DNA from: a virus
DNA length: 64,000 nt
Virus record (IMG/VR): IMGVR_UViG_3300047673_000158
Location: 19,412-83,411 of that record
Strand: one strand, 5' to 3'
Numbering within the stretch: position 1 is the first letter of the stretch; each line of letters begins with the position of its first letter. A program made the position numbers and the translations under genes. Shown here piece by piece: positions 1-41,006 of this stretch. A model generated the notes under the pieces. It was not told where the DNA came from. It was given only the letters and a program-made list of their open reading frames with translations, and made no database searches.

Positions 1-959
1 ATGGCAACAAAGTAAACCCGGCTGCTGACTGGATTGATTCGAAGCCATGGGACGGCATACCGCGCATTGAGGCGCTGGCCGACACGCTGGACGCAGCAGA
101 CCCGGAACTGGCCCGCGTGCTGGTGAAACGCTGGATGATTGGCGCCGTGGCGTGTGCGTTCGAAAACCACGGATTTGCCATGCAAGGCGTGCTGGTGTTG
201 CAGGGCGCGCAAGGCGCAGGTAAGACGACGTGGATTATGGGGCTGGCCGACAATAACCGCGATCTGGCCGCCGAATCCGTGATTTTGAACCCGGCCGACA
301 AAGACAGCGTGAAGCAGTTCGCATCTTACTGGCTGGTAGAGTTGGGCGAACTGGAAGCGACTTTCAGTAAGTCAGACATTACCGCGCTGCGCGGCTTCCT
401 CACCAAAAAGGTTGACGAACTGCGCCTGCCGTATGCGAAGGCCACAAGCAAATTTCCACGACGCACGGCGGCTGCCGCGTCCGTGAATGATCGGGCGTAT
501 CTGCGCGACGAAACGGGGAACCGGCGATACTGGACGATTGAGTGCGGCGCAGGCTTGAACGGTATGCACGGGATCGACATACAGCAGGCATGGGCCGAAG
601 CGAAGGTGCTTTACCTGGCTGGCGAGCGGCACCCGTTGACCAAAGATGAAATGGAGCGCCTGTCTGAGTCGAACATGACCTACACAGAACGCAATCCGCT
701 GTCCGACTTGATTATGGACCGCTTCGATTGGGAAAGCCTGTCCGTGGTCAAAATGTCGGCAACTGACGTTTGCATTGCGGTGGGTTACGACAAGCCGACC
801 ACCAAACAGGTGAAGGACGCGGGCACGATCCTGCGCAAGGCGACCGGCAAAGAGCCTTCCCGTTCGAACGGCCGCGTTGTGTTCGCTGTACCACCTTTGA
901 AGCGAAACAGTTACAAACAGGAACAAAATTTCGAAGACGACAACAGCCGCCCTTTCTAA
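1..959 (+). CDS. Primase-helicase, VirE/VapE P-loop domain and C-terminal winged helix (5' truncated by window), copy A
   Basis: Walker A GAQGAGKT, LRDETGNRRYW motif; near-identical to the 3' part of 42319-44730. Confidence 0.88.
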   Translation, partial: GNKVNPAADWIDSKPWDGIPRIEALADTLDAADPELARVLVKRWMIGAVACAFENHGFAMQGVLVLQGAQGAGKTTWIMGLADNNRDLAAESVILNPADKDSVKQFASYWLVELGELEATFSKSDITALRGFLTKKVDELRLPYAKATSKFPRRTAAAASVNDRAYLRDETGNRRYWTIECGAGLNGMHGIDIQQAWAEAKVLYLAGERHPLTKDEMERLSESNMTYTERNPLSDLIMDRFDWESLSVVKMSATDVCIAVGYDKPTTKQVKDAGTILRKATGKEPSRSNGRVVFAVPPLKRNSYKQEQNFEDDNSRPF

Positions 960-1041
960 AATTTGCTAAACTGCGCCCACATGCCCGATGATTCGGGCTT
1001 TGTCAACGGCGGGGATTACAAAATTGTGAAAGGGGAAGGCC

Positions 1042-1245
1042 ATGGGATCATTGCTCAACGAACAGGAAGCGCGTGAATTACTGGACGGATTCGGCAAGGC
1101 TAACAGCCTGGAGGAAGCCGAACTGCGCGGAATGCAGCGCATGTTGTCGCTTGTGTGCAACAGCGGAAAACGAGACTTCCCCACGCTGGTGGGGCGCATG
1201 CGCCGTGTGATCGAGGCAGCGCGCGAGGAAACGACGGCGCACTAA
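1042..1245 (+). CDS. Hypothetical protein (67 aa)
   Basis: RBS aagggg; conserved at 44813-45016; followed by terminator. Confidence 0.7.
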   Translation: MGSLLNEQEARELLDGFGKANSLEEAELRGMQRMLSLVCNSGKRDFPTLVGRMRRVIEAAREETTAH

Positions 1246-1267
1246 TGACGACAGCACGTAAGCGATT

Positions 1268-1291
1268 AAGCCACCTTCGGGTGGCTTTTTT
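1268..1291 (+). terminator. Intrinsic terminator AAGCCACC-TTCG-GGTGGCTTTTTT
   Basis: GC stem, UUCG loop, U tract; same family at 2223, 4852, 23863 and in copy B. Confidence 0.85.
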
Positions 1292-1309
1292 ATTTGTGCG
1301 GCAAAATGC

Positions 1310-1345
1310 TTGCGTTTCCCTAGGGAAACATGGAAAATCGCTTTC
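1310..1345 (+). promoter_or_regulatory. Sigma70-like early promoter with 16-bp operator GTTTCCCTAGGGAAAC and a 13-bp motif over the -10
   Basis: TTGCGT-17-GAAAAT; perfect palindrome 1314-1329; GAAAATCGCTTTC 1333-1345. Confidence 0.7.
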
Positions 1346-1370
1346 ATTGACAACGAAGGCGGGGTGCGAG

Positions 1371-2201: not shown

Positions 2202-2222
2202 ACCCGCGCGATAGTCACTTTC

Positions 2223-2246: not shown

Positions 2247-2279
2247 GTTGCGTTTTTTCGTTTAAACGCAAAACGGTGC

Positions 2280-2769: not shown

Positions 2770-2842
2770 ACACCAAGCCCGCCGCGCGCGGGCTTTTCCA
2801 CTGAAACGGTGGCCGGTGCCGCCGTCGTTCGGAATCCTGAAA

Positions 2843-3037
2843 ATGACTATCAAAAATCGGGCGAAGGTGGCGGAACGGGCAAAGGCTTACGATGCAGCCA
2901 CGGTGCCGACGACGGTGCTAATTTATGCCCTGGCTGACGCAGTGGCGCAGAGTGTCGCAGATGCTACCGGGGCGCCGGTTGATTTCGTGATTCATGGTGT
3001 GGTTAAAATTTCCAGGCAGCCGCAGAAGGCGGCATAG
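2843..3037 (+). CDS. Hypothetical protein
   Basis: Conserved at 46769-46963. Confidence 0.6.
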   Translation: MTIKNRAKVAERAKAYDAATVPTTVLIYALADAVAQSVADATGAPVDFVIHGVVKISRQPQKAA

Positions 3038-4326: not shown

Positions 4327-4824
4327 ATGACGAAAGCGGTAATCATAGTGGGCAGCCCGGCCGACAGCGCGACGCAGTGCGCCAGTGCGCTTGCGCAGCA
4401 CTTCGGGAAAACCGACATTGAGCATGCGGACCTGCCTGCCGACTTCTACACAGGCGGCGCATTCCCGGATAACGCGCTGGTGTTGACGACGGATGACGAC
4501 TTGGCCGTGCATCACAAGACAATCCACGGCGCGACGGTGTACACGTTTAAGGAAGCGGCGCTGGCGGCCGGGCTTAACAACGGCATGCGCGAGCCGGTGG
4601 ACGGCGTGCTGGACGGATACGCGGCCGTTCGCGTGAATAGCTCGCTGCCTCACGTGGCCGTGCTTGATTCTGTGGGCAAGGGGATTTTTACGCTGCCTGT
4701 CGATTACACCGCCCAGCAGGTGAATACAGCGATACGCATTTATGAACAGGCGTGGAAGTGCGGCCATGCATTCGGCGCGGACTTCGTTCGGCATTCAATC
4801 CGCAATGCGTTGGGTATCGTATAG
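4327..4824 (+). CDS. Small P-loop-like protein with degenerate Walker A
   Basis: AVIIVGSPADSAT aligns with AVIIYGPQGCGKT of the copy B ortholog. Confidence 0.6.
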   Translation: MTKAVIIVGSPADSATQCASALAQHFGKTDIEHADLPADFYTGGAFPDNALVLTTDDDLAVHHKTIHGATVYTFKEAALAAGLNNGMREPVDGVLDGYAAVRVNSSLPHVAVLDSVGKGIFTLPVDYTAQQVNTAIRIYEQAWKCGHAFGADFVRHSIRNALGIV

Positions 4825-4851
4825 CCGCTTTCTTCGTACCCTCTACTACAC

Positions 4852-4875
4852 AAGCCACCCTAGGGTGGCTTTTTT
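4852..4875 (+). terminator. Intrinsic terminator
   Basis: AAGCCACCC-TA-GGGTGGCTTTTTT. Confidence 0.8.
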
Positions 4876-6635: not shown

Positions 6636-6892
6636 ATGAAACCATAACCGTGGCGGCTGCAATCGTGCTGGCTCTGTGGGCGTGCTGGTGTGGTTTTTCG
6701 CGCAGCGTCAACGACGGCATTGTGGGCAAGGCGATTTACTTCTGGATCGCCGTTTCCTCATTGGCAATCGTGCTGGGCGTTGCGGAATTGCGGACATATC
6801 AAACGCTGATAGTCGCTTTCGCAATGCTGGGCGTTCGGCATTACTGGCTGCGATACGTCAAAAAACAGCTATTCAAAAAGGCGGCAGCGTAA
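6632..6892 (+). CDS. Second holin/antiholin-like membrane protein
   Basis: About 3 hydrophobic segments, basic C-tail, ATGA-coupled to the holin. Confidence 0.6.
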   Translation: MNETITVAAAIVLALWACWCGFSRSVNDGIVGKAIYFWIAVSSLAIVLGVAELRTYQTLIVAFAMLGVRHYWLRYVKKQLFKKAAA

Positions 6893-7377
6893 TGGCTCGC
6901 ATAACAGCACAGCAAGCGGGCGGGGCGAACCGCGTTGCGTTTCTGGACATGATCGCGCATTCGGAAATCGGCGCGGCGCTGCTGGCGGAGTCGGACGACG
7001 GCTATAACGTGCTGGTGGGATCGACGCCAGCAAAGCCGCTGATTTTCCCGTCGTATGCAACGCATCCGAACGTGTTGAATCGGGCGCTGAATTCGACGGC
7101 GGCCGGGCGCTATCAATTGCTGTTCCGCTGGTTCAAGGCGTATGCGGCATTGCTGAAGCTAACGGATTTCAGCCCGCTGTCGCAAGACATGATTGCATTG
7201 CAGCAGATTCGCGAGCGGGGCGCATTTCCGCTGATCGACGCGGGCCAGTTCGAAACGGCCGTCGAGCGCTGTTCGAACATTTGGGCATCGCTGCCCGGCA
7301 ATTCGTATGGCCAGCATATGAACGATATCAAGGCGCTGAAAGTCGCTTTCGTTAATGCGGGCGGGGTGGCGGCATGA
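6892..7377 (+). CDS. Endolysin, lambda R-type lytic transglycosylase (GH104)
   Basis: AFLDMIAHSE, STAAGRYQ, FSPLSQD, IWASLPG motifs. Confidence 0.92.
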   Translation: MARITAQQAGGANRVAFLDMIAHSEIGAALLAESDDGYNVLVGSTPAKPLIFPSYATHPNVLNRALNSTAAGRYQLLFRWFKAYAALLKLTDFSPLSQDMIALQQIRERGAFPLIDAGQFETAVERCSNIWASLPGNSYGQHMNDIKALKVAFVNAGGVAA

Positions 7378-7804: not shown

Positions 7805-8019
7805 AGCGAGCATTGATTGGCGCGGCAATCGGCAGCGTGTTGGCGCGCAAGAGTGGCACGGTTGTGTCCATGGGCGGCGAACCCGTTGGCCTAGCGCGAG
7901 CGGATTTCAAAGATCGCATTGCAGCCATGCAAATGCGCGGAACGATTCGGACGTGCGTTAAGAATGCGCGGCGTGAATACAACCGCATGGCGGGCAGCGA
8001 CAAACTGCCGAAGCCGTGA
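7801..8019 (+). CDS. Hypothetical protein
   Basis: Core RAxFKDRIAAMQMRGTI shared with 51685-51909. Confidence 0.55.
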   Translation: MKRALIGAAIGSVLARKSGTVVSMGGEPVGLARADFKDRIAAMQMRGTIRTCVKNARREYNRMAGSDKLPKP

Positions 8020-8095
8020 TAGTCGCTTTCGCAATTGCAGTTCCGGTGGCGCTGGGGTTTGGCGCCTTCGTGTATCGGTTGACGGGGGAAATCAC

Positions 8096-8563
8096 ATGGC
8101 AGGACTGAGCATTTACGCAAAGCTGGTGGCAGCGGCAATCGTGGCGCTGCTGATAGTCGCTTTCGGCTGGCATGAATACAAGGCCGGTGAAACGGCAGGC
8201 ATGGCAGCGGTGCAGCAGAAGTGGGACCGGCAAACGGCTGCTGTGAGCCAGGCAACCACGGTGGCAGTGACGGCAGCGGCGAGCGATGCGCTGGCGAATT
8301 ACAAGGCGGCTGGTGCGAGTGCGCAGCAGGCCGACGAACACAAGGCGCAGCAGGCTGCTGTGCGGGCCGATTTCAAATCACAGGTGCAGGACTATGCGAA
8401 TCATCATGATGGGGCAAACGCCGGGCAAGACGCGACCGGGAATGCTGGCTGCGCTGCTGGGCTTGGCGCTGACGGGCTGCGCATCTGGAACAGCGCCAAT
8501 GCAGCCGCTAACGGTGGTGGTGCCGTCAAGCCATCCGACAGTGCGGCAAGCGTTGCTCAATGA
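8096..8563 (+). CDS. i-spanin (Rz-like)
   Basis: N-terminal TM, Ala-rich coiled coil, C-terminal CxxxLxADGLRIWN. Confidence 0.75.
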   Translation: MAGLSIYAKLVAAAIVALLIVAFGWHEYKAGETAGMAAVQQKWDRQTAAVSQATTVAVTAAASDALANYKAAGASAQQADEHKAQQAAVRADFKSQVQDYANHHDGANAGQDATGNAGCAAGLGADGLRIWNSANAAANGGGAVKPSDSAASVAQ

Positions 8564-10116: not shown

Positions 10117-10129
10117 GAAAGCCACTTTC

Positions 10130-12163
10130 ATGAACCACCCATTCAGCAACCTGGATGCCGTAGTTGCAGCAGCCAGCCGCGCCGCGCAAAACCTAATTCC
10201 GCCCGCCGAAATGAAGCCCAGCGAGTGGGCGGAAAAGAATATCCGAATCCCAATCGGAAACGCAGTTCCGGGTCCAATCAATTTCGACAATGCGCCATAC
10301 CAAAGGGGCATGATTGATTGCGTAGTTGAGCCTGGCATTAAGCGCGTTACTTTTCAGACCGGCGCGCAATTAGGCAAGACCACTACACAACAATGCATTA
10401 CGGGCTACTTCATCGACCACGACCCGCGTTCGCAGATTTTCGTCATGCCAACGCAGAACGACGTGCAGACATTCCAGCAAACGAAATTGGTTCCAATGTT
10501 GGAAGCCAATCCGCGCATTACGCGAAAGCTGGCAAAGGCGCGCGGACGCGAAGGCGTCAACAATTCGAGAATGATTAGTTTTGTTGGCGGGTTCCTGATG
10601 TTTTCATGGGCAGGCAGCCCGCGCACCCTTCGCGGACGATCTGCGCCGATTACCCAAGCCGATGAAATCGACGGCATGGAAATGATTGAAGGCGAAGGCG
10701 ATCCGCTGGAACTGCTGGACCAGCGCGCGGCCACTTTCGGCGACCTGGCGATTAACACGGCATCAAGCACGCCGACAATCAAGGGAATTTCGAGAATTGA
10801 AAAGCGCTTTCTGGCGGGCGATCAACGGCGTTATTTTGTTCCGTGCCCGGATTGCGACGAGCCGCAATATTTGAAGTGGACGCAGGTTTTTTGGGACGGC
10901 CGCGACGCGCCAGAAGCCGAACAACACCCGCACACCGCGCGCTATGTGTGTGAGCATTGCGGCAGCATGTGGAACGACGGCCAGCGCGTGGCGGCGATTC
11001 GAAACGCAGAGAAAAACGGTGGCGGCTGGAAGGCGGCGAATCCGTTCAAGGGCCACGCGTCATTTCATGCGCCGGAAATGCTTTCGACGTTCCGCAAGCT
11101 GGGCGACATTGTCCAGTCGTATTTGAATAAGCTGGCCGCTGGCGATTTGCAATCTTTCGTCAACGTTTCTTTGGGCGAATGTTTCGAGGAAACCGCCGAA
11201 CAGGCCGACCCGGATTCACTCTGCGCGCGCCGGGAAGTGTACGCGGCGCAGGTGCCAATGCACGGCCTTTATCTGACGTGCGGCGTGGACATGCAAACCG
11301 ACCGGCTGGAAGTCGAAATAGTGGCCTGGGGGCTGTTCGAACAGTCATGGTCTGTCGCTTACCGCGTGCTGTACGGCGATCCGCTATCGGGCGACGTGTG
11401 GAACGACCTGGACGACCTGCTGGCCGAAGAATTCCAGCATGAAAGCGGCGCGCTGCTATCCATCCAGGCAACCACCGTGGACACGGGCGGCACGACGGGT
11501 TACACCCAGGCCGCCTATGAATACATTCGCGCCCGCCGCGCCCGAAAGATATTCGCTATCAAGGGCATTCCGGGCTGGGGTCGCGCCATTGTCGAGAAGC
11601 CGCAGCGCAAGCAATCCGGCAAACACAGCCGGAAAGTCGATTTGTACCAGGTGGGCGTGGACGAAGCGAAGCTGGTTGTTATGCGCCGACTTGCAATGAA
11701 GCGCGAAGGGCCGGGTTATTGCCACTTTCCGGCCGACGAAGACCACGGCGAAGACTATTTCAAGCAATTAACGGCTGAAAAGCTGAAAACCCGCTTCGTG
11801 CGGGGCTTCCCGGTGCGCGAGTGGCACAAGGGCGACAAGGTGCGAAACGAGGCTTTGGACTGCCGCGTGTACGCCATGGCAGCCCTAAAAATCATGAATC
11901 CATCATTGCGCCAGCTTGCAAAACGGCTGATTTTGAACCCGGAAACGCAGACATGGGCGCCCGTGGCCGACAATCCGGCCGAAATCGCGCCGATTCAGCC
12001 CGAAAAGCCACGCCCACTGCCCAAACCGACGCCGAAGCCCGTTAAGGCGGCAGAAAACCCCGCCGTGGCTAAGGAACAAGCGCCCAGCGAAACTAGGCCC
12101 ATTAAACGGGCGAAATCGCTAACCGCAGGCAGGCGCCGTGGGGGATTCGCCACCAACTGGTGA
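10130..12163 (+). CDS. terL: Terminase large subunit (GpA family)
   Basis: GAQLGKT, ADEID, SSTPT, VPCPDC, GVDMQ, NEALDC. Confidence 0.95.
   Translation: MNHPFSNLDAVVAAASRAAQNLIPPAEMKPSEWAEKNIRIPIGNAVPGPINFDNAPYQRGMIDCVVEPGIKRVTFQTGAQLGKTTTQQCITGYFIDHDPRSQIFVMPTQNDVQTFQQTKLVPMLEANPRITRKLAKARGREGVNNSRMISFVGGFLMFSWAGSPRTLRGRSAPITQADEIDGMEMIEGEGDPLELLDQRAATFGDLAINTASSTPTIKGISRIEKRFLAGDQRRYFVPCPDCDEPQYLKWTQVFWDGRDAPEAEQHPHTARYVCEHCGSMWNDGQRVAAIRNAEKNGGGWKAANPFKGHASFHAPEMLSTFRKLGDIVQSYLNKLAAGDLQSFVNVSLGECFEETAEQADPDSLCARREVYAAQVPMHGLYLTCGVDMQTDRLEVEIVAWGLFEQSWSVAYRVLYGDPLSGDVWNDLDDLLAEEFQHESGALLSIQATTVDTGGTTGYTQAAYEYIRARRARKIFAIKGIPGWGRAIVEKPQRKQSGKHSRKVDLYQVGVDEAKLVVMRRLAMKREGPGYCHFPADEDHGEDYFKQLTAEKLKTRFVRGFPVREWHKGDKVRNEALDCRVYAMAALKIMNPSLRQLAKRLILNPETQTWAPVADNPAEIAPIQPEKPRPLPKPTPKPVKAAENPAVAKEQAPSETRPIKRAKSLTAGRRRGGFATNW
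12054..12094 (+). promoter_or_regulatory. Late promoter motif inside the terL 3' end
   Basis: AAAACCCCGCCGTGG-N20-GAAACT. Confidence 0.65.
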
Positions 12164-12698: not shown

Positions 12699-14278
12699 TG
12701 GGAATGTTCGATTTCATTCGCTCGCGTGGGCTGATGCCCGCCCGCGCCGTCGAAATGCCGTCCACCACGCCACCTTCGCGCCCGGCGCGCGCCCTTCGCG
12801 CTGCTGGCCGCGCGATCCGTTCCGCGATGCAGTTCAATGCTGCGGGCTTTGACCGTTTAAACGCAACATGGACCGGCACGGCGCTGCCCGCTGACTGGAT
12901 CATTACGAGGAACTATCGCCCACTTGTCGCGCGTTCGCGCGAACAGGCGATGAACAACGACTATGCGCGGGCGTTCCTGCGCATGTGTAGCCAGAACATC
13001 GTGGGGCCGAAAGGCATAACCATGAAAGCCGCTTTCCAGAAAGCGGACGGCAGCCACGACGCTGACACCAGCCGGGCGCTGAAGGCCGCATGGGAACAGT
13101 GGGGCCACAAAAGCACGGCTGACGTGGCGGGCAAAAAGTCGTGGCGCGCTATCCAGCGCTTGCTGGTTAAAAGCGCGGTGCAGGACGGTGAATTTTTCCT
13201 GCGCATCGTGACGGGCAAAGACGCCGGAAAGTGGGGTTTCGCGGTGCAGGTGATCGACCCGCTGCGGGTGCCTGTCGATTACAACGTGGACCGCTACAAC
13301 CAAAGCAACTTCATTCGCCACGGCATCGAATTTACCCGCTTCGGCCGCCCGGTGGCCTACCACCTTTCGACGGTGGACGACGGCGAAGCCGAATATGAGT
13401 ATGCGGGCGTCGGTTACACGACCGTACCGGCCGACCAGATGGTGCACGGCTTCCTGGAAGACATGGTGGGCCAGAAGCGCGGACTGCCCTGGATGGCCAC
13501 GGCGCTGTTTCGTATGCGGAATATGGGCGCATTCGAAGACGCGGCAATCATCAACGCCCGTGTCGGCGCGTCAAAAATGGGCTTCGTCCAGTGGAAGGAA
13601 GGGCAGGCGCCTGAATTTGAAGACGGCGACGACCCGACGAGCCTGGAATTCGACGCTGAACCGGGCTCATTCAACGTGCTGCCAGAAGGCGCGGAAATGA
13701 AGGAATGGCTGCCGCAATACCCCAGCGGCGAGTTCCTTCCCGTGTTCAAAACTCTGCTGCGCGGCGCAAGCGCTGGCTTTGGTGTTTCGTATAACAACCT
13801 GGCCAGCGACCTGGAAGGCGTCAATTTTTCGAGTATCCGCCAGGGCACGCTGGACGAACGCGAACACTGGAAAGAGTTGCAGGAATGGCTTATTGAAGAC
13901 GCCATTCAGCCGGTGCAGGAAGCGTGGCTGCGCTATTCGCTGCTGAAAGGGCGAATCAAGGTTAAAGGAAAGCCGCTTTCACCTGCGCTTCTGGACGAAC
14001 TGCAAGGCGCGATTAGCTGGCAGCCGCGCCGCTGGCAGTGGATCGACCCAACGGCCGACGTAGCCGCCGCCGTGGAGTCGAAAAACAACCTGCTAACCAG
14101 CGCCGGGCGAATCATCCGTGAATGGGGCGGCGACCCTGACGAAATCTTTGCAGACATTGCCGCAGACATTAAGGCGATGGAAGCCGCTGGCATTGACGAG
14201 AAATACATTCTGGCATCCATGGGCCAGGCGCTTGCGCCGCCGCCCGTGGCGTCAGAAGGCAGCCACCCGAACAGCTAA
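12698..14278 (+). CDS. Portal protein, lambda family
   Basis: LVARSR..NND, GQKRGLPW, VNFSSIRQG, WIDPTAD. Confidence 0.95.
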   Translation: MGMFDFIRSRGLMPARAVEMPSTTPPSRPARALRAAGRAIRSAMQFNAAGFDRLNATWTGTALPADWIITRNYRPLVARSREQAMNNDYARAFLRMCSQNIVGPKGITMKAAFQKADGSHDADTSRALKAAWEQWGHKSTADVAGKKSWRAIQRLLVKSAVQDGEFFLRIVTGKDAGKWGFAVQVIDPLRVPVDYNVDRYNQSNFIRHGIEFTRFGRPVAYHLSTVDDGEAEYEYAGVGYTTVPADQMVHGFLEDMVGQKRGLPWMATALFRMRNMGAFEDAAIINARVGASKMGFVQWKEGQAPEFEDGDDPTSLEFDAEPGSFNVLPEGAEMKEWLPQYPSGEFLPVFKTLLRGASAGFGVSYNNLASDLEGVNFSSIRQGTLDEREHWKELQEWLIEDAIQPVQEAWLRYSLLKGRIKVKGKPLSPALLDELQGAISWQPRRWQWIDPTADVAAAVESKNNLLTSAGRIIREWGGDPDEIFADIAADIKAMEAAGIDEKYILASMGQALAPPPVASEGSHPNS

Positions 14279-16302: not shown

Positions 16303-16497
16303 TTGAAAGTGGCTTTCGAACGCGGGGAAGTGCTGGAAGTGCTGAAGCCGTTTTTTGTGGACGGCGAAATGGTTATGCCGGGTGATCGGGTGGAATTGCT
16401 GCGCGCCGACGCCATGCACCTGAAATCACGCGGCATGGTGGTGGCAGAAGGCACCCAGCGGGCCGCCAAGTCGCCCGCCAAGGGCAAGGCAGCCTGA
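16303..16497 (+). CDS. Small head-associated protein
   Basis: RBS ggag; conserved at 59890-60084. Confidence 0.6.
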   Translation: MKVAFERGEVLEVLKPFFVDGEMVMPGDRVELLRADAMHLKSRGMVVAEGTQRAAKSPAKGKAA

Positions 16498-23537: not shown

Positions 23538-23837
23538 ATGAAAGCGCGTGCAAAACTGGTTTTGCTGTGGGCCATGTGCGCCGCGTTTTCCGGCGTGCTG
23601 CTGCTGGCCATGCTAGTGCAGGCGCTTTTCGGTTCCGAAGCGCGAGCGCTGAATATGGCAATCGCCTATGACGAGTGCGCCAACGCGCTTTTCGGGGACG
23701 ACCCGAAGGTGACGATTTCGGAACGCACGGGCAATGCGCTGATCGCGGGCAAGCGCTGGGCGAAGTTGGCGGCGCCGTGCATTGATTTCATTTTCGGGCC
23801 TGGCCACTGCCTGGCGCGCGCCACCACACCACACTGA
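23538..23837 (+). CDS. Hypothetical membrane protein
   Basis: TM segment plus AYDECANALFG..TISER motif. Confidence 0.65.
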   Translation: MKARAKLVLLWAMCAAFSGVLLLAMLVQALFGSEARALNMAIAYDECANALFGDDPKVTISERTGNALIAGKRWAKLAAPCIDFIFGPGHCLARATTPH

Positions 23838-23862
23838 AAGCGACTTTCAAGCGGCAGCCATT

Positions 23863-25925: not shown

Positions 25926-25989
25926 AGACAGCGCAGGGCTGGTGCAACGCCAGCCCTGAAAGCGACTTTCATAAAAACAGGAATCATCC

Positions 25990-26438: not shown

Positions 26439-28473
26439 GCGGCTAAATGCCACAATCGTTATTGGTGGCACGATTTCCGGCGCGCTTAAGGGCGCGCTGG
26501 GCGTGGCCCAAAACGGGCTGAAGCAAATCAGCAGCGAAATGGGGCGCGTGACCAAGCGCCAGGTTTTGCTGGGGAAGTCTATCCAGACGTTTTCCCGCAT
26601 GGGTAAAGACGTTTCTGCATTGCGCAACGAGTATGCGAAAACCGTTTCGACGCTTGACAACCTGCGCCGTGCGCAGGATCGGCTAAATAAATCCCAGGCG
26701 AGCTACACCAGCGCAAAGGAAACCCGTTCGAAATTGAACGGCGCGGCCGTGCGAATGGGCGCCACTGGCCTGGCGATTGGCGGCGTTCTGTCCAGGGGCG
26801 TGCACGCTGCAATCGAGCGTGAAAACGTCGTGGCCGTGATCCGCAATTCTGGCGTATCGAAGGAAGACGGCGACGCCATGATTAGCGCCGCGCAGCATTC
26901 AAAGCAGTTTGGCGTGTCAGTCACGAAGGCGACGGACACGGTTAGCGAACTGCGCACTGCGCTGGGCGACGCACACCACGCCATCGAAGCGCTGCCAACG
27001 GCGCTAAAAGCGATTTCTGGGCTTCAGCTTTACGACCGCCTGCACCACACTGATATGGCATCGGGCGATTCTGCCTATCAGATGGCGAAGGTAGCCGACG
27101 AGCGCGGCGGGGCAACCGACCCGGCCGCCATGCGCGAAAAATACAATTGGGCGTTTAAGGCGCTGACTGGCTCAAACGGCAAAGTGACTGTGAGCGATCT
27201 GCTTACGTCCGTGCGTTCCGGTAAGGGCGCCGTGCAGGCAATGAGCGATGAAGCGTTTTTCGGTGATACGTTTTTGCAGCAAAGCATGGGCGCCGACCGT
27301 TACGGCACGTCCAGCAGTTCGCTGGTAAATGCGTGGATCGGCGGGCACCAAACGCACGGCGCGTTTGACCACATGATGCAATTGGGCCTGCTGAACAAAA
27401 AGGGCGTGAAGTTCGACAAGACCGGCAAGGTTAAGACGATCTCGCCTGACGCGCTGGTGGACGCCCAAACGTTCCTGAAAGACCCGCAAACCTGGGTGGA
27501 TAAACACCTGGTGCCGCTGGCGAAGAAAAAGGGCGTTGACGTGAACGACCCGGCGCAGGTTATGGCGTTTGTAAACGCCATCGCGTCGAACACGAACGCG
27601 GCAAACATGCTGCTAAGTCGCATCCGGTTCAGTTCGAACATTTGGAAGGATCGGCGCAACGTCTTGCAGGCGAACGACACCGAAGGTTCAGACAAGGCCA
27701 ATCAGCAGTCCACGGCAGGGAAGATGGACAACGCCCGTGCGCGCCTGGATGATGCGCAGACCCGTGTGGGCGAGGTGCTGATACCCGCTTTCGCCAACGC
27801 CATGGAACGGCTGGCCACGGGGCTGGAATCCGTTAACAAGTTCGCGGACGCAAACCCGAAGCTGATGGAAGGCGTAGTGCTGGGCCTGGGCGGGCTGGCT
27901 GTGGGCCTGACATTGGCAGCGCCCATTCTGGCCACGGCGGGCGGCGCCCTGACGATTATCGCGGGTATCAAGCTGGCGGGCGCGGTGGCATCGCTGCGCG
28001 ATCTGAAGACGGCCGCCGAAGGTGTGGGACCCGCGACGGGCGGCGCAGCGAAGGGAATCTGGGGATTTCTCGGAAAGCTGGGGCTGGTGGCGGGGCTGGT
28101 GGAAACCGGGCTTACCGTGGCGAAGGCGGCCGGGCTGCCTGACGTGGACAAGGAAAAGGGCGCGGACGACGTTAAAAACGGCCGCTGGTGGGCCGCATCG
28201 GCGCACCTTAACCCGGTTGATTTCGGCGCGGCAGTATGGCGCCACATGACCGGGAAAGACCAGGACGCAGGCCCGGCCGCCGCGCCGACCATTCCGCCGA
28301 TTGCGGGCGGCCGAAGCGGCGGCGGTGCGCAGACTATCGATCAGCGCCAGTATCACGTCGCCTTCCACCAGCAGCCGGGCCAGTCCGGTAAGGACGCGGT
28401 AAACGAGCTAATGACCCGCCTGGGGGCGCCAGCTAACAAGCTGGGTTCCGGGCTTTACGATTCGGGGCTGTAA
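26428..28473 (+). CDS. Tape measure protein
   Basis: Long Ala/Gly-rich helical protein after the chaperone. Confidence 0.85.
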   Translation: MANKRLNATIVIGGTISGALKGALGVAQNGLKQISSEMGRVTKRQVLLGKSIQTFSRMGKDVSALRNEYAKTVSTLDNLRRAQDRLNKSQASYTSAKETRSKLNGAAVRMGATGLAIGGVLSRGVHAAIERENVVAVIRNSGVSKEDGDAMISAAQHSKQFGVSVTKATDTVSELRTALGDAHHAIEALPTALKAISGLQLYDRLHHTDMASGDSAYQMAKVADERGGATDPAAMREKYNWAFKALTGSNGKVTVSDLLTSVRSGKGAVQAMSDEAFFGDTFLQQSMGADRYGTSSSSLVNAWIGGHQTHGAFDHMMQLGLLNKKGVKFDKTGKVKTISPDALVDAQTFLKDPQTWVDKHLVPLAKKKGVDVNDPAQVMAFVNAIASNTNAANMLLSRIRFSSNIWKDRRNVLQANDTEGSDKANQQSTAGKMDNARARLDDAQTRVGEVLIPAFANAMERLATGLESVNKFADANPKLMEGVVLGLGGLAVGLTLAAPILATAGGALTIIAGIKLAGAVASLRDLKTAAEGVGPATGGAAKGIWGFLGKLGLVAGLVETGLTVAKAAGLPDVDKEKGADDVKNGRWWAASAHLNPVDFGAAVWRHMTGKDQDAGPAAAPTIPPIAGGRSGGGAQTIDQRQYHVAFHQQPGQSGKDAVNELMTRLGAPANKLGSGLYDSGL

Positions 28474-31457: not shown

Positions 31458-31502
31458 GCTGAAAGTCCCTTTCGTTTCGTTATTCGTTTAAACGCAAAAC
31501 GG

Positions 31503-32077: not shown

Positions 32078-32122
32078 GAAAGTGACTTTCCGAAAGTTAA
32101 ATTGTATTACGAAAGACGCATG

Positions 32123-33161: not shown

Positions 33162-34135
33162 TATTCGGCACCTTCCAAAGCCGCATTCACGCCTGCCAGT
33201 TCAGTGCCGCCCGCCTGCGCTTCGGTGCGTTGCTTGTCGAACGCAGCGGCCTGTTCCTTCAGGTCTTCCGGGCAGCCCTTGGTGCTGATGCGCTTTTTGA
33301 TCGCGGCCGGTACGGCTGCCCACGCCTTCACCAGTTCCGCCGTGCCCTTTGCCGCTTCCATGCGCAGCGCGTCCAGCGTGCGCTGCTTTTCTTCGTCCAC
33401 CTTGGTGCCGCCGTCCACCCATTCACGGATGCGCAGGCCGTGTTCATAGCCCAGGAAGCCTTCGTGCCAGCCGACCGTCCCCACGATTTCTTCCAGGTCC
33501 GGGTGGCTTTTCAGCACTTCGCGCTGTTTGCCGCCGTCGTACATCATGATCGACACGGTAAGTTCGAACGGGAAATTCTTTTCGCAAATCGGCTGGATGC
33601 CCTGCGGTTCGTATTCCGTCTTTCCGTTGACCCGGACCATTTTCGTTTTTTCGCGGGCACGCATGCACGCGATAACGTGCATCGGCGACGACAGCAGCGC
33701 ATTCACGAAACGCTTATGCTCTGCCTTTGCGTCGTTCCATTTTGGAACCTTCAACACTGAGCCGGGCGGGTTCGCGATTTCTTCACAGCCGCCAGTGCCT
33801 TCCCATTCGTGCGACGTGCTATCAATAATCAGCACTTCGAAACCAGCCTTTGCCGCGCCTTCAATCACGTCAATGTAGCGTTGCGGGCTGAACGGCGCGT
33901 ACAGGTCGTGAATCATGAATTTCTTCACGTTGCCTTCTGCGTCCTGCAGGACGCGGGCGAACAGACGGCCGCGCCGGTTTTCCGTGCAGACAAAGCCGAT
34001 TTTCGACGTGTCGCCCTTCACCATGCCGTGGGCGATTTCCAGCGCCGTGCGGGTCTTTCCGCCGCCGCTTACCCCAGCCAGGCCAATCACCAGCCGGGCG
34101 CCTTCGCGTTCCGCAACTTCAAATTTGATAGTCAC
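33161..34135 (-). CDS. AAA ATPase, Sak4-like recombinase
   Basis: GVSGGGKT, LIIDSTSHEW; between exonuclease and ssb. Confidence 0.8.
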   Translation of the reverse strand: MTIKFEVAEREGARLVIGLAGVSGGGKTRTALEIAHGMVKGDTSKIGFVCTENRRGRLFARVLQDAEGNVKKFMIHDLYAPFSPQRYIDVIEGAAKAGFEVLIIDSTSHEWEGTGGCEEIANPPGSVLKVPKWNDAKAEHKRFVNALLSSPMHVIACMRAREKTKMVRVNGKTEYEPQGIQPICEKNFPFELTVSIMMYDGGKQREVLKSHPDLEEIVGTVGWHEGFLGYEHGLRIREWVDGGTKVDEEKQRTLDALRMEAAKGTAELVKAWAAVPAAIKKRISTKGCPEDLKEQAAAFDKQRTEAQAGGTELAGVNAALEGAE

Positions 34136-34150
34136 TTTCTTATGTTCCCT

Positions 34151-35501: not shown

Positions 35502-36947
35502 ATGGCCGTAGTTCTCCGGGAATACCAATCCGAACTGATTGCGCAGGCGCGGCAAGCCCTGCGCAGGACTAAGCGCGTGCTGATTCAATCGGCCACGGGA
35601 TCGGGCAAAACGGCGCTGGCCACGCACATGGCCATTGAGTCGGTGGCGCGCGGCCGGAAAGTGAATTTCATTTGCCATCGCGCCGAACTGGTGGACGGCA
35701 CCAGCAAGACATTCCACAAATTTGGATTGCCCCACGGGTTCATTGCGGCCGGGCGGCCTATGACCGTTCAGACCATGGCGAACGTGTGCAGCATTGACAC
35801 GCTGAAAGCCCGGCTGGAACAAGTTAAGGCGCCCGACGTGGCCATATGGGACGAGTGCCACCACATGGGCGCAGCGGGCTGGCAGCTTGTCATGAAGGCG
35901 TGGCCCGACACGTACCACATAGGGCTGTCCGCGACGCCGTGGCGGCTGGATGGCACGGGGCTGGGCGATTTCTTCGATGAAATGGTTATGGGTCCGTCCG
36001 TGGCATGGCTGATCGAGGAAGGGCACCTGTCGGAATATCGGGTGTATGCGCCGCACGTGCCCGACATGAAGGGCGCGCGTAAGTCTATGGGCGACTTCGC
36101 CAAGGCCGACGCAGCGGAACGCATGGACAAGCCCAAACTAACGGGCGACACAATCGAGCATTGGAAACGGCTGGCAGCCGGAATGCGAACGGTGGTTTTC
36201 GCCACCACGATTGCGCACAGCGAACACGTGGCCGAACAGTTCAACGCGGCAGGCGTGCCCGCTGCGCACCTGGATGGCAACACGCCTAAAGCGCTGCGCC
36301 GACAAATCATTCAGGACTATGCGGCCGGGGAAATCCTGGTGCTGTGCAATGTGGACCTGTTCGGGGAAGGGTTCGACCTGGCCAGCATCGCGCAATGTGA
36401 CGTGACGATTGACTGCGTGGTCATGCTGCGGCCGACGCACAGCCTTTCTCTGTTCCTGCAAATGGTGGGCCGCGCGCTGCGCCCGTACCTTGGCAAAGTC
36501 GCTGTGATCCTGGACCAGGCGGGCAACACGCTGCGCCACGGCTTCCCCGACGACGAACGCGAATGGCAACTGGAAGGCCGCGACAAAAAGAAAGGCGGCA
36601 AAAAACAGGAAGGGCCGCCGCCGCCAATCACCTGCGATAAGTGCTTTCAGCAAATCCGCCGACCGCTGCCGCCGAAGTGCCCCACGTGCCAAAAAATCCT
36701 GCTGGGAGAAGCGAAGCTGCCGGAATCCGACGACGGCGAACTGGTGGAAATCACCGAAGCAGAGAAGAAACGACGGCGTGCGATCCTGCGGCAAGAGGAA
36801 TCCGAAGCGAAGGATTTGGGCGCGCTGATCGCGCTAGGGGCGCGGCGCGGCTACAAAAACGCGACCGGCTGGGCGCATAAGAAATTCCAGAATAGCCCTT
36901 GGAGAAAGCAGCTTTCTGAAAAACAACAGCCCGTGGTTGATGTGTAA
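35502..36947 (+). CDS. SF2 DEAD/DEAH helicase
   Basis: LREYQ, ATGSGKT, DECHH, GLSATP, QMVGRALR. Confidence 0.93.
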   Translation: MAVVLREYQSELIAQARQALRRTKRVLIQSATGSGKTALATHMAIESVARGRKVNFICHRAELVDGTSKTFHKFGLPHGFIAAGRPMTVQTMANVCSIDTLKARLEQVKAPDVAIWDECHHMGAAGWQLVMKAWPDTYHIGLSATPWRLDGTGLGDFFDEMVMGPSVAWLIEEGHLSEYRVYAPHVPDMKGARKSMGDFAKADAAERMDKPKLTGDTIEHWKRLAAGMRTVVFATTIAHSEHVAEQFNAAGVPAAHLDGNTPKALRRQIIQDYAAGEILVLCNVDLFGEGFDLASIAQCDVTIDCVVMLRPTHSLSLFLQMVGRALRPYLGKVAVILDQAGNTLRHGFPDDEREWQLEGRDKKKGGKKQEGPPPPITCDKCFQQIRRPLPPKCPTCQKILLGEAKLPESDDGELVEITEAEKKRRRAILRQEESEAKDLGALIALGARRGYKNATGWAHKKFQNSPWRKQLSEKQQPVVDV

Positions 36948-36954: not shown

Positions 36955-36983
36955 TTGTGTTTTCTTTTGGAAACATCCATAAT
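36955..36983 (+). promoter_or_regulatory. Promoter with operator GTTTTCTTTTGGAAAC
   Basis: TTGTGT-17-CATAAT; operator 36959-36974. Confidence 0.72.
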
Positions 36984-37142: not shown

Positions 37143-37237
37143 AGAAATTCGCTTTCAACGTCGCAGGTGGTGTGGTGCTGGGCCTGGTGCTGATGATTGG
37201 CCCAATCCTGGACGGTCTTCGTAACATCGCGGCCTGA
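37139..37237 (+). CDS. Small membrane peptide (32 aa, MKKFAFNV...)
   Basis: RBS aagggag, single TM. Confidence 0.55.
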   Translation: MKKFAFNVAGGVVLGLVLMIGPILDGLRNIAA

Positions 37238-38560: not shown

Positions 38561-39273
38561 TGGTCCGGGGCTACATCATTTCTTTGTGTGACCTGACGGG
38601 CCACATGGTGCAGCCCTGGGTGGATGCGGGTTATCACGCCGTACTGGTGGACCCGCAACACCCGAAAGGGGTCCACACCAGCGAGCCGAACGCTAAGGGC
38701 GGCACCATTACGCGAATCGGCGCAACCATCGTGGAATGCGCCGACGTGCTGGGCGCTTTCTTCCGGCTGTTTCCGGCCGCGCCCGTGGTATTCGTGGCGG
38801 GCTTCCCGCCCTGCACGGACGTGGCGGTATCGGGCGCCCGGTGGTTCAGCCACAAGGCGAAGGCCGATAAGCACTTTCAGACTAAGGCCGCGCTGGTGGC
38901 AGAACAATGCCGCATGGTGGGCCTGCTGTCCGGTGCGCCGTGGTTTTTCGAAAATCCCGTGTCTGTCTTCAGCGGCATTTTCGGCAAGCCTTCGCACACG
39001 TTCAACCCTTACGACTACACGGGATTTGAACCGGCCGACAACTACACGAAGAAAACCTGCCTGTGGACTGGTGGCGGGTTTGTGATGCCAGCCCCGTGCC
39101 GCGACTTGTCGCTGGGTGCGCCGGATAACCGGATTCACACGGCGCCGCCCAGCGCCGACCGGGCCAATTTCCGCAGCGCCACGCCCATGGGTTTTGCGCG
39201 GGCTGTGTTTGAAGCGAACGCGCCGCACTTGCGCGCAATTCGAACCCCTGCATTTTTTGCGGCGGCAGCATGA
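38560..39273 (+). CDS. DNA cytosine-C5 methyltransferase-like protein
   Basis: ISLCDLTG, FPPCT, ENP, YTKKTCLW, RSATPMGFA. Confidence 0.75.
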   Translation: MVRGYIISLCDLTGHMVQPWVDAGYHAVLVDPQHPKGVHTSEPNAKGGTITRIGATIVECADVLGAFFRLFPAAPVVFVAGFPPCTDVAVSGARWFSHKAKADKHFQTKAALVAEQCRMVGLLSGAPWFFENPVSVFSGIFGKPSHTFNPYDYTGFEPADNYTKKTCLWTGGGFVMPAPCRDLSLGAPDNRIHTAPPSADRANFRSATPMGFARAVFEANAPHLRAIRTPAFFAAAA

Positions 39274-39650
39274 AAGAAACCGGAATCCAGAACGAAATCC
39301 GCAACGCGCTGGCGGGGCACTGCATGCTGTTCCGCGCGAACGTCGGCACGGCGTGGACGGGGAACGATATTAAGCGGCTGCCTGACGGGTCCATTTTGAT
39401 CCGCGATCCGCGCCCGTTCAGCACGGGACTGCCGCCCGGCTTTTCGGACCTGTTCGGGCTGGTGACGGTTGAAATCACGCCGGAAATGGTGGGGCAGAAG
39501 TTTGCGCAGTTCCTGGCGGGCGAAGTGAAGACGGCGACGGGCCGCAAGCGCAAGGCGCAGGGTCCGTTCCTGGATGCAATTAAACAAGCTGGTGGCCGCG
39601 CCGACGTATGGCGAAGCGCTGCCGACGCACTGCGGACCATCGGCAAATGA
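39270..39650 (+). CDS. VRR-NUC nuclease
   Basis: E..IQ, FRANVG, GFSDLFG, EVKT..GR. Confidence 0.85.
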   Translation: MKETGIQNEIRNALAGHCMLFRANVGTAWTGNDIKRLPDGSILIRDPRPFSTGLPPGFSDLFGLVTVEITPEMVGQKFAQFLAGEVKTATGRKRKAQGPFLDAIKQAGGRADVWRSAADALRTIGK

Positions 39651-39886
39651 AAGCAAAGCGCGCACCGTATCGAGCCACGGACTACGAACCGCCCGTGATT
39701 GTGGTGGAAAGCGGCGACGTGGAACGGGACGCGCTGCGCGTTATGGGGCTGCCGAAGCTGTGGCAGCGCCAGCACGAAATCTGGCGCGTGGGGCACCTGC
39801 ACGGGCTGGCACACGAAACCGCTGTTAAAAGGCGGGTATCTCAACTCTGGAAGGAAAAGGAAGGGGAATTTAAAAATGCAGCATGA
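39647..39886 (+). CDS. Hypothetical protein
   Basis: ATGA-coupled to the VRR-NUC gene. Confidence 0.5.
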   Translation: MKAKRAPYRATDYEPPVIVVESGDVERDALRVMGLPKLWQRQHEIWRVGHLHGLAHETAVKRRVSQLWKEKEGEFKNAA

Positions 39887-40265
39887 CAACCACGCAATCG
39901 AAGTATCGGGGCAAATTCTTACTGATCGCTGTTTCGGCGCGTCGTTCGCTTCTGGATGGTGGACGGACCTGAAGACCGGCGAAGACCTGCGCATGGCCAA
40001 CAACGTGCCAGAAAAGCTAATGCTGATTGTTTCGGAAGTGTCCGAAGCGATGGAAGGCCACCGCAAAAACCTGATGGACGACAAGCTGCCGCACCGTCCG
40101 ATGGTGGAAGTTGAACTGGCAGACGCAGTGATTCGGATTTTTGACCTGGCGGGCGCTAAGGGTTACGACGTGGCGGGCGCGATTGTCGAAAAGCTGGCGT
40201 ACAACGCGCAGCGCGCCGACCACAAACCGGAAAACCGGCTGGCAGAAGGCGGCAAGGCGTACTGA
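39876..40265 (+). CDS. MazG-like nucleotide pyrophosphohydrolase
   Basis: LIVSEVSEAMEGHRK, VELADAVIRIFDLAG, EKLAYN. Confidence 0.85.
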   Translation: MQHDNHAIEVSGQILTDRCFGASFASGWWTDLKTGEDLRMANNVPEKLMLIVSEVSEAMEGHRKNLMDDKLPHRPMVEVELADAVIRIFDLAGAKGYDVAGAIVEKLAYNAQRADHKPENRLAEGGKAY

Positions 40266-40408
40266 TGCTTTCCGCCTTCAAAACGCGCAGGGCGGCTTCA
40301 AATATCGGCCGCCTGTACGGAATCAAGCGCCGATGGTTTGGGCTTGAGCCTGAACCGTGGTATAGGGCGCGGCTTATCAGGGTGCTGGAATGCAATCGCC
40401 ACCACTGA
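40265..40408 (+). CDS. Small basic hypothetical protein (47 aa)
   Basis: TGATG coupling; fills the gap in the operon. Confidence 0.45.
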   Translation: MLSAFKTRRAASNIGRLYGIKRRWFGLEPEPWYRARLIRVLECNRHH

Positions 40409-40758
40409 CAACCCGCGCAATGGTAATGGCTGCCCTGGCTGGCGAAGACATGACGGTGGCGCAGGCTGCCGAAGTGCTGGCGATGCACCGTAACACGGTT
40501 GAATATCACCTGCGCCGTGCGCATAAGGAAGGCCGCGCCCATGTGTGCGGGTGGCACCGAAACATTGGCGTGCAGGGCGATTGGGGCGCTATTTACCGGG
40601 CTGGCGAAGGCGAAGACGTTCCGCCGCCTAGCGCGCCTATGAAAGTTCGGGTGAAGGTGTACAGCCGACGCTACTACAAGGCAAACCGGGCGCTGATACG
40701 CGCCCGGAGCGCGGCAAAACGGGGAAAACTGGGCCACTACGTGCAACTGCTGACATGA
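40390..40758 (+). CDS. HTH DNA-binding protein
   Basis: MTVAQAAEVLAMHRNTVEYHL. Confidence 0.7.
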   Translation: MQSPPLTTRAMVMAALAGEDMTVAQAAEVLAMHRNTVEYHLRRAHKEGRAHVCGWHRNIGVQGDWGAIYRAGEGEDVPPPSAPMKVRVKVYSRRYYKANRALIRARSAAKRGKLGHYVQLLT

Positions 40759-41006
40759 AAAAGAAAATCGCTTTCGTGATTCATCCGGGCTTCGTCACTT
40801 CGCAGAACGACGGACAGCGCCACTACATTACGGCCGAACAGCTTGTGCGCCTGTACCGGCTTCATCCAGGCACGTGGGTGGTGTATCAGCCGCCGCGAGC
40901 ATTCGACCGGGCGGCAAGCTGGCGACGAAACCCGTATGAAGGCTTGAAAGCGATTTTCCCGCGCAACGATGGCAAGTATCCGATTTTTGACGGGGCCGAA
41001 TCATGA
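40755..41006 (+). CDS. Hypothetical protein
   Basis: HPG.V.S.NDGQRHYI...QL..LY; coupled. Confidence 0.6.
   Translation: MKKKIAFVIHPGFVTSQNDGQRHYITAEQLVRLYRLHPGTWVVYQPPRAFDRAASWRRNPYEGLKAIFPRNDGKYPIFDGAES

Follow-up and report, generated by a model that had tools for sequence, protein, structure and literature searches.

A genome-wide array of selected 13-bp palindromes in a clade of Burkholderia-type phages

We analyzed a window of 64,000 nucleotides, bases 19412–83411 of the 83,411-bp IMG/VR virus record IMGVR_UViG_3300047673_000158, and found the 13-bp palindrome GAWAGYSRCTWTC (one written-out form is GAAAGCCGCTTTC) to form an array that is real, selected and lineage-specific. Self-comparison revealed two head-to-tail genome units of ~43.3–44.2 kb each, called here unit A and copy B, whose shared blocks are 73–94% identical and separated by replaced segments; overall the two genomes are roughly 90% identical, and their joining is either an effect of assembly across two strains or a true concatemer. 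An earlier note, made from the letters alone, had described the sites as a stoperator- or parS-like network. The selected, phage-specific network and the dimer-like anatomy of the site held up in our analyses, but membership in the stoperator or parS class did not. As judged from sequence, the array is most probably one for protein docking, and the reading that we favor, with a rough probability of 0.45, is that a homodimeric protein from the early module docks at the sites and acts as a genome-wide transcriptional silencer or insulator.

Enrichment, conservation and placement of the sites

Exact matches number 25 in the window (15 in unit A and 10 in copy B), compared with 0 in each of 100 dinucleotide-preserving shuffles. 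Across the whole record, the 28 exact and 23 one-mismatch sites exceed the means of 0.12 and 1.98 obtained from 50 order-3 Markov simulations, and the two-mismatch sites are near chance (35 vs. 22.4). These counts confirmed the enrichment far above chance that had been proposed. All 15 exact coordinates reported earlier for unit A were correct, and each of the nine "near matches" proved to be a one-mismatch site; three further one-mismatch sites (27780, 35657 and 40946) bring unit A to 27 sites of both kinds together. Because a single complete relative, G004 (43.3 kb), has 15 exact and 11 one-mismatch sites, we used ~26–27 sites per 43.6-kb unit as a working number. The sites of the window are listed below; gene calls came from our own crude caller, and the distances to start codons are approximate.

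353..365: one mismatch (GGAAGCGACTTTC), in the 3' part of the primase gene; a clade-specific D-to-E change and a synonymous T (ACG to ACT) within the conserved LGELDATF motif
1333..1345: one mismatch (GAAAATCGCTTTC), over the -10 of an early promoter with a 16-bp operator at 1314-1329; relative L064 has two promoters of this design (site on the -10, 16-bp operator in the spacer)
2210..2222: exact, 8 bp past a stop codon and immediately 5' of the terminator hairpin 2223-2242
2839..2851: one mismatch, 23 nt inside gene 2816-3037
4820..4832: one mismatch, over the stop of gene 4327-4824, 20 bp 5' of the terminator 4852-4871
6808..6820: exact, within holin-like gene 6593-6892, codons ATA GTC GCT TTC
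7338..7350: exact, close to the 3' end of endolysin-like gene 6892-7377
8018..8030: exact, over the stop of gene 7801-8019
8152..8164: exact, in a transmembrane segment of gene 8096-8563, codons ATA GTC GCT TTC
10117..10129: exact, filling the whole 13 bp from a stop codon to the terL ATG (10130); also in G004, the Caballeronia relative and copy B (53711)
11548..11560: one mismatch, within terL; the Caballeronia relative has the same residues in different codons and no site
13024..13036: exact, within the portal gene (MKAAF; LQAQT/MQAQA in motif-free relatives)
13968..13980: exact, within the portal gene, codons GGA AAG CCG CTT TCA
16305..16317: exact, over the start of the 64-aa gene 16303-16497, downstream of the major head gene
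18670..18682: exact, 25 nt inside gene 18645-18983, less-used codons GGA, CTT and TCA
20732..20744: exact, within tail-fibre-like gene 20490-22415
23836..23848: exact, over the stop of gene 23538-23837, with a terminator hairpin and then a late-promoter motif (23894) behind it
25958..25970: exact, intergenic, between the tail tube gene and gene 25990
27780..27792: one mismatch, within the tape-measure gene
31461..31473: one mismatch (centre), in the leader of a leftward early promoter, 3 nt 5' of where minus-strand gene 30816-31457 starts (ATG)
32078..32090: exact, adjoining the ATG of minus-strand ssb (31607-32077)
34127..34139: exact, over the start of the minus-strand AAA_24 ATPase gene 33161-34135
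35657..35669: one mismatch, within the helicase gene
36904..36916: one mismatch, near the helicase 3' end, ~50 bp 5' of the early promoter/operator at 36959; relative L064 has an exact site here
37144..37156: one mismatch, 5 nt inside a 32-codon open reading frame (ORF) upstream of the ParB-like gene
40763..40775: one mismatch, 4 bp past the stop of the winged-helix gene
40946..40958: one mismatch, reverse complement of 40763
Copy B, exact (44124..62257): 46104, 49001, 50991, 51908, 52045, 53711, 56618, 57562, 59892, 62245
Copy B, one mismatch (44124..62257): 44124, 45105, 46765, 55142, 60832

Selection on the sites is visible within genes, which wholly contain 16 of the 27 sites of unit A. 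The codon-preserving control called for in the earlier note gave means of 0.18 exact (maximum 2) and 2.2 one-mismatch sites (maximum 6) in 200 synonymous-codon shuffles of the genes that we called, against 7 and 9 in the actual sequence. The same comparison in the Caballeronia phage described below gave 8 exact and 7 one-mismatch in-gene sites vs. 0.33 and 2.26. In a codon alignment, GGA AAG CCG CTT TCA in this phage stands opposite GGC AAG CGC CTG GGT in motif-free relatives. The run ATA GTC GCT TTC occurs in three membrane helices, and the use of ATA isoleucine codons was borne out for sites 6808, 8152, 11548 and 27780: ATA makes up 39 of the 587 isoleucine codons, and four of these 39 lie within sites.

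The sites are also conserved. With sites defined in G004, only 5 of 286 site columns differ between the units (1.7%) vs. 9.4% elsewhere, so that sites are ~five times better conserved than other DNA, and a direct comparison of the units found 18 of 22 sites identical vs. 44% of random 13-mers. Site 53711 before terL is retained in copy B despite different upstream DNA, as had been noted. Among the 24 sites of the Caballeronia phage, only 8–9 of the 13 that can be aligned are common to both genomes. The number of sites is thus held while their positions turn over at greater distance.

The symmetry of the word is not that of a conserved stem. Mirror positions 3/11 are complementary in 19 of the 27 sites, 5/9 in 19 and 6/8 in 12, and no compensating changes were seen, the left and right halves varying independently. 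Because the mirror positions are often noncomplementary, a hairpin or cruciform is not the conserved feature, and the same counts led us to reject a hairpin or intrinsic terminator as the identity of the word. The word is most simply described as a central G/C flanked by two GAWAGY half-sites, an arrangement that suggests a dimer bound to duplex DNA. Half-sites with GATAG are always on the left in this record, but in the Caballeronia and Paraburkholderia relatives several sites have them on the right, although the genes concerned run in the same direction; on account of these reversals, we attribute the left–right asymmetry to coding context.

Placement and spacing are not random either. In unit A, 17 of the 27 sites are no more than 40 bp from a gene end vs. 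17% expected (P = 1.6e-7), as do 15 of the 26 in G004. The starts of terL, ssb, the AAA_24 gene and three small genes each have a site next to or across them, which agrees with the gene-start positions pointed out before (10117, 32078 on the minus strand, 34127, and those at genes 16303 and 31457). The positions at or after stop codons (2210, 4820, 8018 and 23836) were likewise correct, and in three cases (2210/2223, 4820/4852 and 23836) the site has a stop codon before it and a strong terminator after it. The reported overlap with a -10 applies to one site, 1333. The spacing in unit A has a coefficient of variation (CV) of 0.61 (P = 0.005), a mean of ~1.7 kb and a largest gap of 3.7 kb (P = 0.008). 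Even spacing was found in three genomes (CV 0.59–0.69); G004 is similar to unit A, and the Caballeronia phage shows it more weakly (CV 0.69, P = 0.04). Perfect and imperfect sites are distributed unequally: the late region has 12 exact and 2 imperfect sites, the leftward early block 2 exact and 1 imperfect, and the rightward early block 1 exact and 9 imperfect.

Distribution in hosts and relatives

To place the array in its lineage, we counted the word in bacterial genomes and in phage loci. The isolate genome of Caballeronia fortuita (G001, 7.4 Mb) has 17 exact sites, 13 of them on a single 42.4-kb contig (C29) that is a relative of this phage; its 77-bp terminal overlap indicates a circular or concatemeric template in the isolate assembly. 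The host scan proposed in the earlier note thus left only four exact sites in the ~7.36 Mb of Caballeronia DNA outside the phage contig, and these showed no operator-like context, two being in ORFs and two in no ORF of high third-position GC content (GC3), which is a crude filter. All four sites of a Paraburkholderia metagenome-assembled genome (5.6 Mb) are inside its prophage, and the six sites of the Burkholderia alba genome are scattered across six contigs. A reversed control pattern matched 1, 0 and 0 times in the Caballeronia, Paraburkholderia and B. alba genomes. The whole-genome counts, with four sites in ~7.36 Mb, ruled out a host-wide word such as a DNA uptake sequence, Chi or a repetitive extragenic palindrome (REP).

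The word follows the phage lineage closely. Among 40 loci selected by TerL, all 16 with at least 78% TerL identity have 2–11 exact sites, the six at 73% have 0–4 exact and 5–9 one-mismatch sites, and none of the 18 at 67% or below has any site. Among 80 helicase-selected loci, only three carry the word, all from the close clade. TerL of this phage is 60–66% identical to that of Achromobacter phage Mano, Pseudomonas phages PPpW-3 and Persinger, and Burkholderia phage Mica; the order of genes is as in Mano and PPpW-3, and these two have 0 exact sites. The 73% clade (G005, G006 and the Paraburkholderia prophage) has only the late module in common with this phage. The sites of G005 and G006 are almost all imperfect and restricted to that shared module, with none in the ~14 kb of early DNA that is their own. 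In the Paraburkholderia prophage we counted 4 exact and 8 imperfect sites, and its unrelated early region holds three of these. The motif is therefore a phage-specific and lineage-specific array. A limited literature search found no description of the word or of such an array in this phage group, in agreement with what had been supposed.

The genes of the phage are organized in the following blocks:

Packaging, head and tail: terS, terL, lambda-like head, P2-like tail
Leftward early block: ssb, AAA_24 ATPase, exonuclease VIII
Rightward early block: helicase, ParB-like protein, methyltransferase-like protein, resolvase, small regulators, primase
Further genes: small genes, Mor-like late activator, lysis genes

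Neither a tyrosine or serine recombinase, nor a CbiA/ParA-type ATPase (PF01656), nor an S24 peptidase was found in the whole 83-kb record. The 213-aa product of gene 30816-31457, called SprT-like in the earlier note, matches solely phrog_6361, a family of unknown function, and the 64-aa gene at 16303 has no family match. We also observed, at 1661-1993 (+), a 110-aa protein with the H-NS C-terminal DNA-binding domain (PF00816, E = 6.9e-13); G004 also encodes it, but neither in the Caballeronia relative nor in L064 was it detected.

Candidate binding proteins and other word families

Four proteins occur only in motif-bearing genomes: the winged-helix protein (40390), the NrdR-like zinc-ribbon protein (41335) and the small proteins at 1051 (64 aa) and 39647 (79 aa). 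These and the ParB-like protein include the following candidates:

40390-40758 (+): winged-helix protein, 122 aa, Pfam HTH_20 and others
41335-41844 (+): NrdR-like zinc-ribbon protein, 169 aa, no ATP-cone, PF22811 at E = 1.3e-6
1051-1245 (+): 64-aa protein of unknown function, restricted to motif-bearing genomes
37577-38560 (+): orphan ParB-like protein, 327 aa, HTH_ParB at E = 1.7e-10 and KorB domain at E = 0.0039

The binder is probably encoded in the early module, because the relatives sharing only the late module, G005 and G006, keep mostly imperfect sites and have none in their early DNA, a pattern that looks like the decay of sites parted from their binder. We ranked the winged-helix protein first, then another clade-restricted small protein or the zinc-ribbon protein, and the ParB-like protein last. 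The winged-helix protein, one of the binders suggested earlier, remains a candidate and is the best phyletic fit. Its structural model (pLDDT 78.9) shows a three-helix domain with a wing, followed by a long helix at the C terminus, and the nearest folds are the dimeric ArsR/SmtB, PadR and MarR repressors, with weak E-values from 3e-3. The family is found in every genome with an exact site, including distant members in G006 and the Paraburkholderia prophage, the lineages of the 73% clade that still have exact sites, and no member was found in the G005 group, which has 0 exact sites. Moreover, a site lies 3' of the winged-helix stop codon in five of five motif-bearing genomes, including unit 1, G004, L064 and the Caballeronia relative.

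The zinc-ribbon protein resembles NrdR chains at E = 0.013 and has retained both specificity residues of NrdR (D and R) along with its RRR patch, followed by a coiled-coil-like stretch and a Pro-rich tail; a search for its family recovered only the same clade. As a separate observation, such a protein could compete with host NrdR at ribonucleotide reductase promoters. NrdR boxes are 16 bp long, and the 13-bp word is unlike what we take to be their consensus. Acting in pairs, the zinc ribbon of NrdR binds palindromic boxes, which occur two per promoter and ~three helix turns apart (PMC9110341), and the phage encodes a zinc ribbon of this type without the ATP-cone.

The ParB-like protein, also put forward before, aligns to Spo0J/ParB, including the GHRRRLA box (the CTP-binding arginine box), and is 67–100% identical across the motif-bearing genomes. 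We nevertheless disfavored it as the binder because 87 loci of relatives with a homologue have no exact site. None of the 77 ParB-selected loci (40–53% identity) has an exact site or a dispersed palindrome in more than four copies; homologues of 29–47% identity were also found in 10 of the 77 motif-free helicase-selected loci, again with no exact site and no palindrome above four copies. Mano, with a near-identical recognition helix (RSRTHVDQLL vs. RSRPHVEQLL), has neither exact nor one-mismatch sites. Conversely, no ParB-like gene was detected in the 55 kb examined of the Paraburkholderia prophage, which has four exact sites, and the B. alba prophage has another type of ParB and no site. A general explanation by ParB was unsupported across the 80 helicase-selected and 77 ParB-selected loci. 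A modest excess of GCAG-YSR-CTGC in ParB-bearing relatives (13 vs. 4.9 expected) was dropped, as the matches had no orthologous positions.

Two other word families mark promoters. The 16-bp word GTTTNC-N4-GGAAAC in the spacers of early promoters has 15 matches vs. 1.5 expected, with positions including:

1314, 2284, 31512, 35363, 36959, 41860
Copy B: 45086, 46177, 52969

One of its places is directly 5' of the tandem-HTH gene (41927). The word travels with the early module: G004 and the Caballeronia relative have it, and more distant relatives lack it. The word AACCCCGCCGTGG precedes late genes on the plus strand at 5899, 12056, 14807, 18599 and 23894 and marks putative late promoters. It is absent from the Caballeronia phage, where the Mor-like protein is 42% identical and the palindrome unchanged, which suggests that activator and site changed together. 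In view of these families, the tandem-HTH and Mor-like proteins probably have their own sites; the tandem-HTH protein, earlier counted among the possible binders of the 13-bp word, more probably serves the 16-bp operator. A role of the palindrome as a late-activator (Mor/C-type) site was ruled out, since AACCCCGCCGTGG marks the putative late promoters and the distances from palindrome to AACCCCGCCGTGG are not fixed.

Further repeats were noted in passing. The palindrome CGTTTAAACG has 7 copies vs. 0.09 expected (2259, 9441, 12854 and 31485, and 46152, 53392 and 56448 in copy B), two of them placed between a 13-bp site and a 16-bp operator. Three near-identical terminator hairpins lie in the rightward early region (1268-1287, 2223-2242 and 4852-4871), with AAGCCACC-loop-GGTGGCTT followed by a T run, two of them directly 3' of a 13-bp site. 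Other oligomers that look like Chi-type words are strongly enriched in several genomes (G007, the Caballeronia phage, PPpW-3 and this record): a 10-mer with GCTGGTGG 11 times in G007, CCTGGCTGCC 14 times in the Caballeronia phage, and CACCAGCACG and CACCAGCGCG 8 times each in this unit. The enriched oriented words of this phage are other, Chi-like octamers and not the 13-bp palindrome. At L092:16579-16830, ~5 kb 3' of the helicase gene, eight copies of CTGGCTATCGCGGCACCGCGACGGCTGG at multiples of 24 bp are probably origin iterons; as a local tandem array, they were rejected as an analogous network. The 41-kb G009, the record of L098, has only five 13-bp 6-1-6 palindromes AACAATSATTGTT (AACAAT-S-ATTGTT) at 13.8–23.5 kb; these are confined to the early region, look like an ordinary set of early operators and were likewise rejected.

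Known systems and readings of the array

The nearest described analogue is found in the Cluster O mycobacteriophages, whose 17-bp dyad repeats TGTTCGGNNNCCGAACA occur in 34 copies per genome (PMC4351075). As far as that report describes them, the general picture matches except for sequence and host. Both words are symmetric with a variable 3-bp centre, dispersed genome-wide in inter- and intragenic positions and absent from the host. The Cluster O repeat is likewise found at 5' ends, single changes abolish it in relatives, and a dimeric protein has been proposed to bind it. The arms differ (7-3-7 in Cluster O, 5-3-5 or 6-1-6 here), as do the genomes, which are those of actinobacterial siphoviruses of ~70 kb in Cluster O and of a proteobacterial myovirus type of ~44 kb here; the synonymous-shuffle, conservation and spacing tests were made on the present array.

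The 13-bp stoperators of the Cluster A phages L5 and Bxb1, with 24–34 copies, are proposed to stop stray transcription (PMC3029335). They resemble the present array in length, in their many copies across the genome and in the many sites at gene junctions. Unlike it, stoperators are described as asymmetric, oriented one way relative to transcription, mainly intergenic and bound by the immunity repressor of a prophage. Because the present word is symmetric and has no consistent orientation, we do not place it in the stoperator family; 16 of 27 sites are in genes, and neither an S24-type repressor nor an integrase was found. A classical parS or partition system is equally set aside, as the phage lacks a ParA-type gene and AAA_24 is the sole ATPase encoded near the region. 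The IncP plasmid RK2, the source of the KorB-OB system, carries 12 OB sites. That system and the present one share a 13-bp core palindrome with AGCSGCT at the centre in its common form, sites both near and far from promoters, and an encoded ParB-family protein with a CTP box (PMC11790492). A second operator family at promoters is also seen in both, OA on RK2 and the 16-bp operator here. The flanks differ (TTT/AAA in OB, GAA/TTC here), and the ParA/IncC partner of RK2 has no counterpart here. The present sites do not travel with the ParB-family gene in relatives, as they would in a ParB-parS or KorB-OB system; unlike with KorB-OB, the ParB-like family here is common in relatives without such a network.

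Our favored reading, a homodimeric silencer or insulator, was arrived at because sites precede terminators, stand at gene starts and cover a -10; because late genes have the strongest sites, while the weakest are those of the binder's own probable operon; and because integration genes are lacking and a relative assembles as a circle. Under this model, each monomer would read one GAWAGY half-site flanking the central G/C. Selection would have written ~26 sites into each 43.6-kb genome, leaving no stretch longer than ~3.7 kb without one, with placement cheap at gene junctions and achieved inside long genes through less-used codons or conservative residue changes. The bound protein would be an obstacle to RNA polymerase, or halt it, where operons end, where genes start and at some early -10s. 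Perfect sites, of presumed high affinity, lie in the late and leftward genes, and imperfect ones lie in the rightward early operon, which probably encodes the binder. Silencing may serve a carrier state without integration, a possibility raised by the missing integrase and by the relative that assembles as a circle in a bacterial isolate. Coating of the whole genome, which the earlier note had imagined, would agree with the even spacing. A bolder form, that a free-circle phage without an integrase has its 44 kb covered or silenced by one protein, either a ParB/KorB-type CTP clamp or a winged-helix repressor, seems to us unlikely.

Several observations weigh against silencing by an early-module dimer. 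No candidate binder fits cleanly: phages that share the same sites carry one or the other of two winged-helix alleles with only 36% identity, and the recognition helix of the Paraburkholderia prophage protein diverges still more. Distant members of the family are also found where the motif is missing, 20 of them in other phages (L068–L087) with no site. The zinc-ribbon protein, having kept the specificity residues of NrdR, may instead read NrdR boxes. The early-region sites of the Paraburkholderia prophage fit less well with the view that sites outside the close clade are decaying relics. Most sites are away from predicted promoters, and the preference for gene ends, evaluated with our own rough gene calls, is weak in the Caballeronia phage (7 of 24, P = 0.075). 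The report on Cluster O considers a transcriptional role of its repeats unlikely, as most of them are far from promoters (PMC4351075).

These observations leave room for other readings, all less probable. The sites could be loading sites for the partner-less ParB/KorB-type CTP clamp at 37577-38560, whose dimers would load, close and slide; spaced sites would let such a clamp cover the genome for long-range silencing or protection, like KorB on RK2. The HTH domain of ParB, the weak KorB-domain match and the GHRRRLA box speak for this, as do the 6-1-6 palindrome with the core of OB, the central AGCSGCT shared with the OB oligonucleotide and the reach of KorB silencing, given as at most 1.5 kb (PMC11790492), which fits the mean spacing and largest gap of the sites. 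Conservation of the protein in all motif-bearing genomes is a further point in favor, but the 87 homologue-bearing loci without a network, the siteless Mano and B. alba prophage, the Paraburkholderia prophage with sites and no such gene detected, and the lack of ParA make the clamp a doubtful explanation. A phage protein might otherwise organize the DNA physically, in compaction, packaging or protection, with no control of transcription. That would accommodate the evener-than-chance spacing, the many sites far from predicted promoters and the persistence of sites in late modules whose early module has been exchanged. It would not require the preference for gene ends, terminators and a -10, though junctions are also the cheapest places, and no candidate structural DNA-binding protein was identified, the product of 16303 having no family match; we rate it as quite unlikely.

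The survival of the motif through exchange of the early module would also be expected if a host transcription factor of Caballeronia or Paraburkholderia were bound, the phage reading the state of the host or soaking the factor up, and phages with sites for host factors are known (PMC9437464). The word is too rare in host DNA to make this more than improbable, with four exact sites in the ~7.36 Mb and six scattered ones in another Burkholderia genome, and the sites are lost in relatives from the same bacterial family. An RNA or single-stranded DNA hairpin with a 5-bp stem and 3-nt loop, acting in translation control, RNA processing or stability, would explain the palindrome, the ~10 sites that overlap translation start regions and the left arm GAAAG at the ribosome-binding-site position of terL and ssb. 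We consider it highly improbable: pairs 3/11 and 5/9 are each noncomplementary in 8 of 27 sites without compensation, more than half of the sites are away from starts, and a 5-bp A/U-rich stem is weak. Equally improbable are linkers that guide recombination of modules between related phages. Recombination between the Cluster O repeats has been reported (PMC4351075), and sites do lie at gene boundaries, with 3 of 35 homology-block ends between the units within 15 bp of a site; this is not significant (P = 0.066), the other comparisons gave 1 of 41 and 1 of 31 block ends vs. 2.6% of the genome, and the sites inside conserved genes would be left unexplained.

Dispersed arrays have been documented on plasmid RK2 and in a small number of actinobacterial phages; those with a symmetric word, known from Cluster O, have had no function or binder assigned since 2015. 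The same architecture is now seen in a proteobacterial, P2-tailed and integrase-less clade of soil Burkholderia-type phages, in which selection writes sites into genes, holds their number constant during positional turnover and spaces them evenly. As the Caballeronia fortuita isolate appears to carry a circular relative, the binder and its effect are directly testable. If genome-wide silencing or coating is true, it would bear on how nonintegrating phages keep their genes silent and on the limits that regulatory networks set to phage mosaicism. On the bolder and unlikely reading above, of a free circle covered or silenced by one protein, the array would amount to a control layer with which the phage marks its whole genome; it would evolve as the phage's own genes are rewritten and would decay when recombination parts a module from the binder.

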